Virus record (IMG/VR): IMGVR_UViG_2695420644_000003
Source of the DNA: a virus
Lineage: Duplodnaviria; Heunggongvirae; Uroviricota; Caudoviricetes
Length of the DNA stretch: 2,406 nt
Strand: one strand, 5' to 3'
Under the pieces are notes generated by a model, which saw nothing but the letters and a program-made list of their open reading frames with translations, made no database searches and was not told the origin of the DNA. Of this stretch, positions 519-2,406 are shown piece after piece; within the stretch, counting starts at the first letter, position 1, and each line of letters starts with the position of its first letter. The position numbers and the translations under genes are program-made.

Positions 519-1019
519 TTAATGCAGATATTGCTCTGGTTTTACCGATGTCAGAATTGTCGGTGCATACTCAAACAGACTGAATAATTCACGTAATGCA
601 CGGAATAAAGCATCACGCCAGTAACATGATTCTTCATTAATTCGCCAGTATGGCTGGTTGAATTCTTTTTCTGTCAATCTGGCATGCATAAATAAAGTAC
701 GCCGCTGACTGACTGTTAAAAAACTAATATATGCATACTCACTTGCACCGACCTGACGGCGTTTTGAGAATGCCCCACGCAATTCATCAATTGCACAAAC
801 CAGCCGTTCACGTTCGACATCGTTCATTTCTTCGAAACGCATCGTTGCGTGACGTTGTTTTAACTGCGCATGGAAGCAAACCGTTAGCCGTTCACGTTCC
901 ATCATCTGATTATAATAATCACATGTCTCCTGCCAGCGAGGGACGGCCAGATGCTTACCAATTATCCGGCGCATAGCTGCTGGCTGTTTTTCGACGAGAT
1001 TAAGTGTCATCACTGTCAT
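519..1019 (-). CDS. B: Replication protein B-like (166 aa), P2 early-operon type
   Basis: 166-aa minus-strand ORF with ATG at 1019..1017 preceded by GGAGG (8-nt spacer). Its start overlaps the stop of the upstream small ORF (ATGA). Position (third gene after cox) and length match phage P2 gene B as I recall it (166 aa). Assignment rests on synteny, size and memory, not an alignment. Confidence 0.7.
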   Translation of the reverse strand: MTVMTLNLVEKQPAAMRRIIGKHLAVPRWQETCDYYNQMMERERLTVCFHAQLKQRHATMRFEEMNDVERERLVCAIDELRGAFSKRRQVGASEYAYISFLTVSQRRTLFMHARLTEKEFNQPYWRINEESCYWRDALFRALRELFSLFEYAPTILTSVKPEQYLH

Positions 1020-1186
1020 TTCCAGACCCTCCGGCTTTTCAGAAAGGTCAGAGCCTTTTTTAACGGACTCTGTTTTTTGGTGCGGATAATGATTCCCTTA
1101 CGCCCCTTACCGTGGGTGATGGTGAAGTCAATCGCCCTGGGGCTTTCGTTACGCAGTAACTGAGCAATACAACGAGGTTCATTCAT
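1016..1186 (-). CDS. Small, highly basic hypothetical protein, 56 aa from ATG 1186..1184; occupies the position of P2 orf78 between cox and B
   Basis: ATG at 1186..1184 preceded by a strong Shine-Dalgarno (minus strand TTAAGGAGAACCGT-ATG). The track's longer version starts at GTG 1210 and would overlap cox. About 15 K/R against 3 D/E in 56 residues. A tandem nucleotide repeat CCCTTAC-G-CCCCTTAC (1095-1110) encodes a G-K-G-R-K-G motif. Stop TGA overlaps the B start. Confidence 0.6.
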   Translation of the reverse strand: MNEPRCIAQLLRNESPRAIDFTITHGKGRKGIIIRTKKQSPLKKALTFLKSRRVWK

Positions 1187-1196
1187 ACGGTTCTCC

Positions 1197-1472
1197 TTAA
1201 CGTGGTTCACCGAGACCTAACCACATCAACCAGCCGTCACGAATCTCTTTAGGGCGGCTTTCATAAGCCAGTTTTAGTCCGTTATTCCATGCCGGAAGGT
1301 ATACCCAATATTCACCTGCACGACCTGAAGCTGATTGTGGATCGGTCATATCAATTACAGGCAGCTTTCCTTTATCGATCATCCGACGAACCGCTCCTGT
1401 CGATTTTCCTATTAGTTTTGCGAACTCCTGATAAGGAATCGCATCAGTCATGAGTGTTACTTGCTTGCTCAT
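1197..1472 (-). CDS. cox: Cox-like excisionase / lysogeny-switch regulator (91 aa)
   Basis: 91-aa minus-strand ORF with ATG 1472..1470 preceded by GGAGG (5-nt spacer); first gene of the leftward operon, divergent from the repressor gene. Length equals P2 Cox (91 aa, from memory). The segment IPYQEFAKLIGKSTGAVRRMIDKGKLPV followed by GEYWVYLPAWNNG has the look of an excisionase-type winged-helix DNA-binding protein. Confidence 0.8.
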   Translation of the reverse strand: MSKQVTLMTDAIPYQEFAKLIGKSTGAVRRMIDKGKLPVIDMTDPQSASGRAGEYWVYLPAWNNGLKLAYESRPKEIRDGWLMWLGLGEPR

Positions 1473-1486
1473 GTCGTCCTCCAGCC

Positions 1487-1515
1487 CTCATGAATTGCGT
1501 TTAATGCCTTATAAT
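1487..1515 (+). promoter_or_regulatory. Candidate rightward repressor promoter (Pc-like): perfect -10 TATAAT at 1510-1515 with a poor -35
   Basis: TATAAT consensus on the plus strand; no good TTGACA-like hexamer at 16-18 bp upstream (best nearby is TTGCGT at 1495-1500, wrongly spaced). Predicted start near 1522, giving the repressor mRNA a leader of about 65 nt that runs through the leftward promoter. Confidence 0.35.
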
Positions 1516-1530
1516 GCCTTTTAGTGCACA
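1491..1530. promoter_or_regulatory. Four tandem 10-bp direct repeats at one-helical-turn spacing (TGAATTGCGT / TTAATGCCTT / ATAATGCCTT / TTAGTGCACA); candidate Cox-binding boxes over the rightward promoter
   Basis: Repeats read directly; the second and third are identical over 9 bp (TAATGCCTT). They overlap the TATAAT at 1510-1515. Assignment to Cox binding is inference from the known behaviour of P2 Cox (binds directly repeated boxes and represses Pc). Confidence 0.4.
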
Positions 1531-1553
1531 CATCCAAGCACTAAACAATCTAC

Positions 1554-1583
1554 ATCTAAACTAAATACTATTGAGATCTAAAC
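1554..1583. promoter_or_regulatory. Two exact 8-bp direct repeats ATCTAAAC (1554-1561 and 1576-1583), 22 bp centre to centre, flanking the -10 of the leftward promoter; candidate operator half-sites for the C-like repressor
   Basis: Repeats read directly; additional CTAAAC copy at 1541-1546. Direct-repeat operators two helical turns apart flanking the Pe -10 is what I recall for P2 C repressor; binding here is inferred. Confidence 0.5.
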
Positions 1584-1593
1584 ACCATGTCAA
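1565..1593 (-). promoter_or_regulatory. Candidate leftward early promoter (Pe-like): -35 TTGACA (plus-strand 1588-1593), 17-bp spacer, -10 TAGTAT (plus-strand 1565-1570)
   Basis: Perfect -35 consensus and optimal spacer on the minus strand; -10 keeps the most conserved positions (TA...AT). Predicted start near 1557-1559, about 85 nt upstream of cox. The -35 overlaps the repressor start codon (1587-1589). Confidence 0.55.
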
Positions 1594-1886
1594 ACACGAT
1601 AAGCGAGAAGATAGTCTTAATGCGAAAATCAGAGTATTTGAGCAGACAACAACTTGCTGATTTAACAGGGGTTCCGTATGGCACGCTGAGTTACTATGAA
1701 AGTGGTCGTTCAACACCTCCAACAGATGTCATGATGAACATCCTGCAGACCCCACAATTCACCAAATACACTTTATGGTTCATGACCAATCAGATCGCTC
1801 CTGAGTCCGGGCAAATTGCGCCCGCTCTCGCACACTTTGGGCAAAACGAAACAACGTCGCCCCACTCCGGTCAAAAGACTGGTTAA
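1587..1886 (+). CDS. C: Immunity repressor, HTH DNA-binding protein (99 aa), P2 C-like
   Basis: 99-aa plus-strand ORF (ATG 1587, TAA 1884-1886). N-terminal segment SRQQLADLTGVPYGTLSYYESG fits a helix-turn-helix. Divergent from cox and immediately upstream of int on the same strand, as in P2; length equals P2 C (99 aa, from memory). Weak Shine-Dalgarno (GAGA about 10 nt upstream). Confidence 0.8.
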   Translation: MSNTISEKIVLMRKSEYLSRQQLADLTGVPYGTLSYYESGRSTPPTDVMMNILQTPQFTKYTLWFMTNQIAPESGQIAPALAHFGQNETTSPHSGQKTG

Positions 1887-2001: not shown

Positions 2002-2406
2002 ATGGCAATCAAAAAACTCGATGATGGTCGATATGAAGTGGACATCCGCCCTACTGGACGTAATGGAAAACGCATCCGTAGGAAGTTTGATAAGAAAAGC
2101 GAAGCTGTCGCTTTCGAGAAATACACGTTGTACAACCACCACAATAAAGAATGGCTATCAAAACCAACAGACAAGCGACGTCTGTCGGAGCTGACACAGA
2201 TCTGGTGGGATTTAAAGGGTAAACACGAAGAGCATGGGAAATCTAATCTTGGAAAAATTGAAATCTTCACAAAAATAACGAATGACCCATGCGCATTTCA
2301 AATTACGAAATCGCTTATCAGCCAGTACTGCGCCACCCGAAGAAANTNNGNNNANNCCCAGGCCATCGCATGCCACTGGCAATCACCGGCATCGGCAAGG
2401 CATTGA
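2002..2406 (+). CDS. int: Tyrosine integrase, N-terminal (arm-binding) portion only; reading frame closes at 134 aa with TGA at the window end, after ambiguous bases at 2346-2356
   Basis: ATG 2002 preceded by GGAGG (8-nt spacer). The N-terminus (KKLDDGRYEVDIRPTGRNGKRIRRKFDKKSEAVAFEKY) has the pattern of a phage integrase arm-type DNA-binding domain. A complete integrase would be over 300 aa with a C-terminal catalytic domain, which cannot be present in this window. Whether the 134-aa stop is real or an artefact of miscalled bases cannot be decided from the sequence. Confidence 0.65.
   Translation: MAIKKLDDGRYEVDIRPTGRNGKRIRRKFDKKSEAVAFEKYTLYNHHNKEWLSKPTDKRRLSELTQIWWDLKGKHEEHGKSNLGKIEIFTKITNDPCAFQITKSLISQYCATRRXXXXXQAIACHWQSPASARH
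2346..2356. other. Patch of ambiguous base calls (N at 2346, 2348-2349, 2351-2353, 2355-2356) inside the integrase reading frame
   Basis: Read directly from the sequence. Confidence 0.95.

Follow-up and report, generated by a model that had tools for sequence, protein, structure and literature searches.

Positions 1487-1593 of the window, the 2,406-nt stretch of DNA analysed here, almost certainly hold the promoters and operators at the core of the bacteriophage P2 lysis-lysogeny switch, carried in a P2-immunity E. coli prophage. The facing promoters in this segment are the long-characterised lytic promoter Pe and lysogenic promoter Pc of P2, which are already known and have been studied since the 1980s. 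The promoters, operators, and transcript starts of P2 Pe/Pc have been mapped, and the structures of both regulators have been solved. The segment matters little as a discovery, since it is the textbook P2 switch, and it serves instead as a calibration point: from raw sequence alone, a first-pass annotation predicted both promoters, their starts to within about 1 nt, the ~35-nt overlap of their transcripts, and the interference logic.

We compared the window with a phage collection by megablast, which aligned positions 56-2344 to phage P2 (AF063097 / NC_001895) at 98.1% identity across int, C, cox, orf78, B, orf80, and orf81. Several E. coli chromosomes contained a prophage segment 100% identical to positions 56-2344. 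A base-by-base comparison with P2 returned 43 differences, with none in C, none in cox, three in the cox-C spacer (1482, 1507, and 1528), and one in the C-int gap (1972). The P2 AF063097 annotation was transferred to the window (locus coordinate = window + 145), and the GenBank P2 features Pe -35/-10, Pc -35/-10, and O1/O2 coincided exactly with the elements of the first-pass annotation. The window sequence was the same as P2 at every one of these annotated elements.

Membership in the P2-type (Int-C-Cox) switch of Peduovirus phages was judged by gene order, a small HTH C protein, a Cox-family protein encoded by the first early gene, and converging promoters. Gene order in the window was int-C one way and cox-orf78-B the other way with a 114-bp spacer, as in P2 (criterion ~110 bp). 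The genes and open reading frames around the switch were as follows:

1587-1886, plus strand: C, immunity repressor, 99 aa; 0 base differences from P2, where it is annotated.
1197-1472, minus strand: cox, 91 aa, Pc repressor and excision directionality factor; 0 differences from P2, where it is annotated.
2002-2344, plus strand: 5' part of int, transcribed together with C from Pc; ends at a chimeric junction.
1016-1186, minus strand: short ORF, from the ORF list.
519-1019, minus strand: 166-aa ORF, from the ORF list.

The C product matched Pfam HTH_3 and, over its full length, PDB entries 2XCJ and 2L49 ('C protein'). The cox product matched Pfam Phage_Cox (E = 5.5e-48) and was matched full-length by PDB 4LHF. 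With its gene order, C repressor, Cox, and converging Pe and Pc, the window is classed by sequence as a P2-type (Int-C-Cox) switch. Immunity groups have been delineated by C protein identities of at least 95% within a group (PMC3448106), and a C gene without any base difference from P2 places the prophage in the P2 immunity class.

Pe. The first-pass annotation had proposed a leftward promoter (TTGACA, 17 bp, TAGTAT) beside the repressor gene. This promoter was present at 1593-1565, scored 10/12 against the consensus, and is the annotated Pe of P2. Its features were:

1588-1593, minus strand: Pe -35, TTGACA; consensus scan and P2 'minus_35_signal early promoter Pe' (AF063097).
1565-1570, minus strand: Pe -10, TAGTAT, 17 bp from the -35; consensus scan and P2 annotation.
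1557, minus strand: Pe transcription start, approximate (+/- 2 nt); published primer extension; inside O2.

The -35 was said to overlap the C start codon, and at 1588-1593 it does share the T and G of the C ATG (1587-1589), together with the next four bases. The Pe primer that Ahlgren-Berg et al. 2007 (PMC1904263) used on P2 aligns with window 1440-1479, and the ~118-nt cDNA obtained with it therefore puts the start at ~1557, next to the leftward start of about 1558 that had been predicted. Pe is a sigma-70 promoter close to consensus, from which transcription would proceed leftward through cox-orf78-B in the direction of A.

Pc. The rightward promoter contrasted with Pe in having a perfect -10 and no usable -35:

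1510-1515, plus strand: Pc -10, TATAAT; sequence and P2 annotation.
1490-1495, plus strand: Pc '-35', ATGAAT, per the P2 GenBank record; 14 bp from the Pc -10.
1522, plus strand: Pc transcription start, approximate and derived; 7 nt past the -10, fitting the ~35-nt overlap.
1522-1557, no strand assigned: doubly transcribed region of about 36 nt, delimited by both starts and holding an 8-bp inverted repeat.

TATAAT at 1510-1515 was the sole rightward -10-like hexamer above 4/6 in the cox-C spacer, with alternatives reaching just 4/6, in agreement with its earlier description as the only good rightward -10, and it is the Pc -10 of P2. The same description held that the rightward promoter lacks a -35, and no hexamer located 15-19 bp upstream of TATAAT scored above 2/6 against TTGACA. 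The 14-bp spacing to the ATGAAT of the GenBank record is not functional for sigma-70. Pc is effectively a -10-only promoter, and 'no usable -35' is a fair description of it. P2 Pc is weak and could be detected only once the Pe -35 had been removed from the construct (PMC1904263), consistent with the proposed pairing of a strong leftward with a weak rightward promoter. From this weak promoter, transcription would run rightward into C-int.

Both P2 starts have been mapped by primer extension, and the Pe and Pc transcripts overlap by ~35 nt (PMC1904263). The published Pc primer sits in vector sequence, and we derived the window Pc start from the stated overlap and the -10 spacing (PMC1904263). 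Because the authors reported a ~35-nt overlap and the Pe start is at ~1557, the Pc start falls near 1522, which was also the position predicted by the first-pass annotation. Starts set 7 nt past each -10 (1522 and 1557) gave an overlap of 36 nt, so the convergent transcripts overlapping by about 35 nt that had been proposed agree with both the computed and the published values.

C operators and Cox-boxes. The interpretation in the first-pass annotation was incomplete, not wrong: it omitted both sets of repressor operators by which the switch is actually set, namely the C half-sites O1/O2 around the Pe -10 and the Cox-boxes over Pc.

1576-1583, minus strand: O1, C half-site (ATCTAAAC on plus, GTTTAGAT on minus) in the Pe spacer; P2 annotation, sequence, and literature.
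1554-1561, minus strand: O2, second C half-site, covering the Pe start; P2 annotation, sequence, and literature.
1496-1504, minus strand: predicted Cox-box, 9/9; motif scan.
1505-1513, minus strand: predicted Cox-box, 7/9; motif scan.
1515-1523, minus strand: predicted Cox-box, 8/9; motif scan.

O1 and O2 were identical 8-bp direct repeats (ATCTAAAC on the plus strand) separated by 22 bp centre-to-centre, with the Pe -10 (1565-1570) between them. Their sequence, spacing, and position agreed with those used to define the P2 immunity class and place the window in it. The P2 C footprint runs ~12 nt past O2, to ~+16 of Pe (~1542), adjoining Pc-bound polymerase, and the authors account for negative autoregulation by this footprint beside the Pc polymerase (PMC1904263). 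Low concentrations of C increase C expression, and high concentrations reduce it (PMC3448106).

The P2 Cox-box has the consensus TTAAA(G/C)NC(A/C), with boxes 10-11 bp apart over the Pc -10/-35 and DNase footprints in P2 (PMC3936717). We took a Cox operator to be at least six Cox-boxes with 10-11 bp spacing that overlap the Pc -10/-35. The three best predicted boxes (1496-1523) were spaced by 9-10 bp and lay over the Pc -10 and start. Sites of at least 7/9 numbered 78 in the whole window, and further degenerate boxes were indistinguishable from background by score. The Cox-box region had the P2 sequence except at 1507. In P2, Cox represses Pc and spreads towards Pe at high concentration (PMC3936717).

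Mechanism. Three layers would set the switch, in which the two start points lie face-to-face ~35 bp apart. In the first, C bound at O1/O2 would repress Pe. In the second, Cox would polymerise on the Cox-boxes over the Pc -10 and start to turn Pc off, and at high levels would spread towards Pe. The third follows from the short distance over which the promoters converge: polymerases from an active Pe would run across the weak Pc or occlude it, and so suppress it in cis by transcriptional interference. By repressing Pe, C would then activate Pc indirectly, so that low C levels yield positive autoregulation. With more C present, its footprint, extending to ~+16 of Pe (~1542), would abut polymerase at Pc and yield negative autoregulation. 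Established for this switch are its sequence identity, the positions of promoters and operators, the mapped starts, the binding of C and Cox, and a weak Pc; how large the interference is in P2 itself, and how it works, is what we infer. In P2-like phages, immunity repressors appear to activate the lysogenic promoter primarily by relieving it of transcriptional interference from the strong lytic promoter (Hao et al., PMC5001618). Interference is the accepted mechanism, and for P2 itself the case is made by analogy and indirect data. The first-pass annotation had read the layout as one for transcriptional interference, which probably holds by analogy with the P2-like phages (PMC5001618) and fits the published description of the promoters as converging or face-to-face.

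A switch run by mutual repression only, with C at O1/O2, Cox at the Cox-boxes, and a layout that just gives the operators room without meaningful interference, is unlikely. C and Cox do have separate operators that each overlap the promoter they control, and the authors of the 186 work noted that the face-to-face arrangement supplies inter-promoter sequence for Apl/Cox binding. We found no direct quantification of interference in P2 in the literature, and it has been measured in the relative 186. However, mutual repression sits poorly with the detection of Pc only after deletion of the Pe -35 in a construct in which Pe was otherwise unrepressed (PMC1904263), and with the activation by low-concentration C of its own promoter without a known activator contact. 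The literature credits P2-like self-activation to relief of interference (PMC5001618), and pR inhibits pL by interference in 186. Polymerases that cover roughly -60 to +20 (PMC1904263) must also touch when their starts are separated by ~35 bp. We therefore favor the reading in which interference acts together with C and Cox repression.

Spacer alleles. The window carried three natural alleles in the cox-C spacer, all outside the hexamers and operators and all also found in other E. coli prophages. At 1482, C in place of the P2 T changes the cox Shine-Dalgarno from AGAGGA to GGAGGA; the P2 allele was present in 6/9 sampled E. coli prophage copies. At 1507, C in place of T lies at Pc -15, in a degenerate N position of a Cox-box. 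At 1528, A in place of C falls at Pc +7 / Pe +30, within the loop between the arms of the inverted repeat. We consider it improbable that these alleles (the stronger cox Shine-Dalgarno at 1482, and those at 1507 and 1528) shift the set-point of the switch relative to laboratory P2 and that the hairpin in the overlap adds an RNA-level layer through 5'-end stability or antisense pairing.

RNA-level control. The overlap contained an 8-bp perfect inverted repeat at 1520-1527 / 1538-1545 (TTTAGTGC ... GCACTAAA) with a 10-nt loop. Were the ~36-nt complementary 5' ends and this repeat to act as mutual antisense RNAs, control would be largely post-transcriptional, which we regard as very improbable. 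The transcript overlap is real, the repeat lies inside it and alone folded better than shuffles (z = -5.2, for a segment chosen after the fact), and antisense effects can supplement interference at convergent promoters generally (PMC5001618). The full 5' leaders, however, folded no better than shuffles (z = -1.8 and -1.0), and Rfam gave no match at E <= 1 in the overlap or anywhere else in the window. The overlap is also distant from the ribosome-binding sites of C (ATG at 1587) and of cox (ATG at 1472), and antisense control was not invoked in the P2 literature examined. Antisense or hairpin control is a low-probability addition to the interference-based switch, not the mechanism. The right arm of the repeat overlapped CTAAAC (1541-1546), an incomplete third C half-site located where the extra C footprint downstream of O2 was reported.

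Chance and conservation. Promoter evidence from pattern alone was modest. A consensus scan of the whole window returned 4 promoter-like sites against 3.5 expected from shuffles. First-order Markov sequences of 128 nt contained a promoter scoring at least 10/12 in 2.3% of cases and a perfect TATAAT in 5.7%; the two occurred together in ~1%. The real support for the promoters comes from their identity to experimentally mapped P2 promoters. That the hexamers are non-functional chance matches in an AT-rich spacer, a reading raised by the lack of enrichment in this generic scan, can be rejected with near certainty. The sequence bears the mapped P2 promoters unchanged, the hexamers were invariant across the natural copies compared, and chance would bring both motifs together in 128 nt in ~1% of cases. 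Published work has already refuted the reading, with primer extension and reporter assays of these Pe/Pc hexamers and O1/O2 operators in a sequence differing at 1507 and 1528.

The 128-bp switch core was present at >=95% identity in 405 of 5,426 complete E. coli genomes, making the switch with P2 immunity common in E. coli. The Pe -35, Pe -10, and Pc -10 were invariant in 10 sequences (P2 and nine sampled E. coli prophages), among which the variable positions were 1480, 1482, 1507, 1528, 1545, 1553, 1578 (one copy, inside O1), and 1586. The prophage of NZ_CP069893.1 had the substitution inside O1, C to A at the equivalent of window 1578, along with a variant C protein, WP_001350698.1. Another prophage copy with the same C variant had an intact O1.

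Known systems. P2 Pe/Pc (C-Cox; AF063097 / NC_001895) is the same element, sharing the Pe -35/-10, Pc -10, O1, O2, C, and cox without base differences. The window departs from it at spacer bases 1482, 1507, and 1528, and in being a copy on a chimeric contig with a truncated int. WPhi, a heteroimmune P2-like phage of immunity class III, shares the int-C / cox-orf78-B gene order, its Pe and Pc likewise converge, and its C also binds direct repeats spanning the Pe -10. It differs in a C protein that is 43% identical, different half-sites 34 bp apart, a 152-bp spacer, and a transcript overlap of 82 nt. Phage 186 (CI-Apl) has facing pR and pL promoters like P2, and its strong lytic pR inhibits the weak pL by interference, not the reverse. 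Between these promoters lie direct repeats at intervals of 10-11 bp, which are bound by Apl, a Cox-like directionality factor. Phage 186 departs from P2 in the larger size of its CI repressor and in a further promoter for establishment that depends on CII, and its interference was measured directly whereas that of P2 is largely deduced. Lambda PR/PRM (CI-Cro) follows the same logic of two mutually antagonistic repressors over lytic and lysogenic promoters. In lambda the promoters stand back-to-back and the repressors share operators, whereas in P2 the promoters face each other, each repressor has its own operators, and C is expressed from one promoter.

Setting. The window was chimeric. Positions 1-40 came from inside chromosomal sslE and 2357-2406 from inside a gene for an IclR-family regulator; these loci have no relation to one another or to the prophage. 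The junctions at 41-55 and 2345-2356 were letter-by-letter blends of the joined sequences with Ns, and the chimeric ends truncated int and orf81. We considered the window ends as attachment-site or host junctions and rejected this, as they are internal fragments of unrelated genes joined through N-laden blends. The ends look like an assembly or consensus artefact rather than biology. With its chimeric source contig and truncated int, this copy of the switch may not belong to an active phage. The integrase of the prophage in NZ_CP025916.1, an E. coli genome with a 100% match to the window, was a pseudogene cut by IS100 (IS21-family; 2247-2889 of the locus), and the lineage of that prophage may be unable to excise. 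The IS100 insertion was ~11 nt past the point where the window departs from the P2 sequence (window ~2355).

Terminator-like hairpins were commoner in the window than expected (9 vs 2.0). One on the minus strand at 497-482 coincides with the annotated putative terminator after gene B in P2. Another at 1972-1956 in the C-int gap, also on the minus strand, is oriented leftward, opposite to the transcription of C and int, and includes the P2 difference at 1972.
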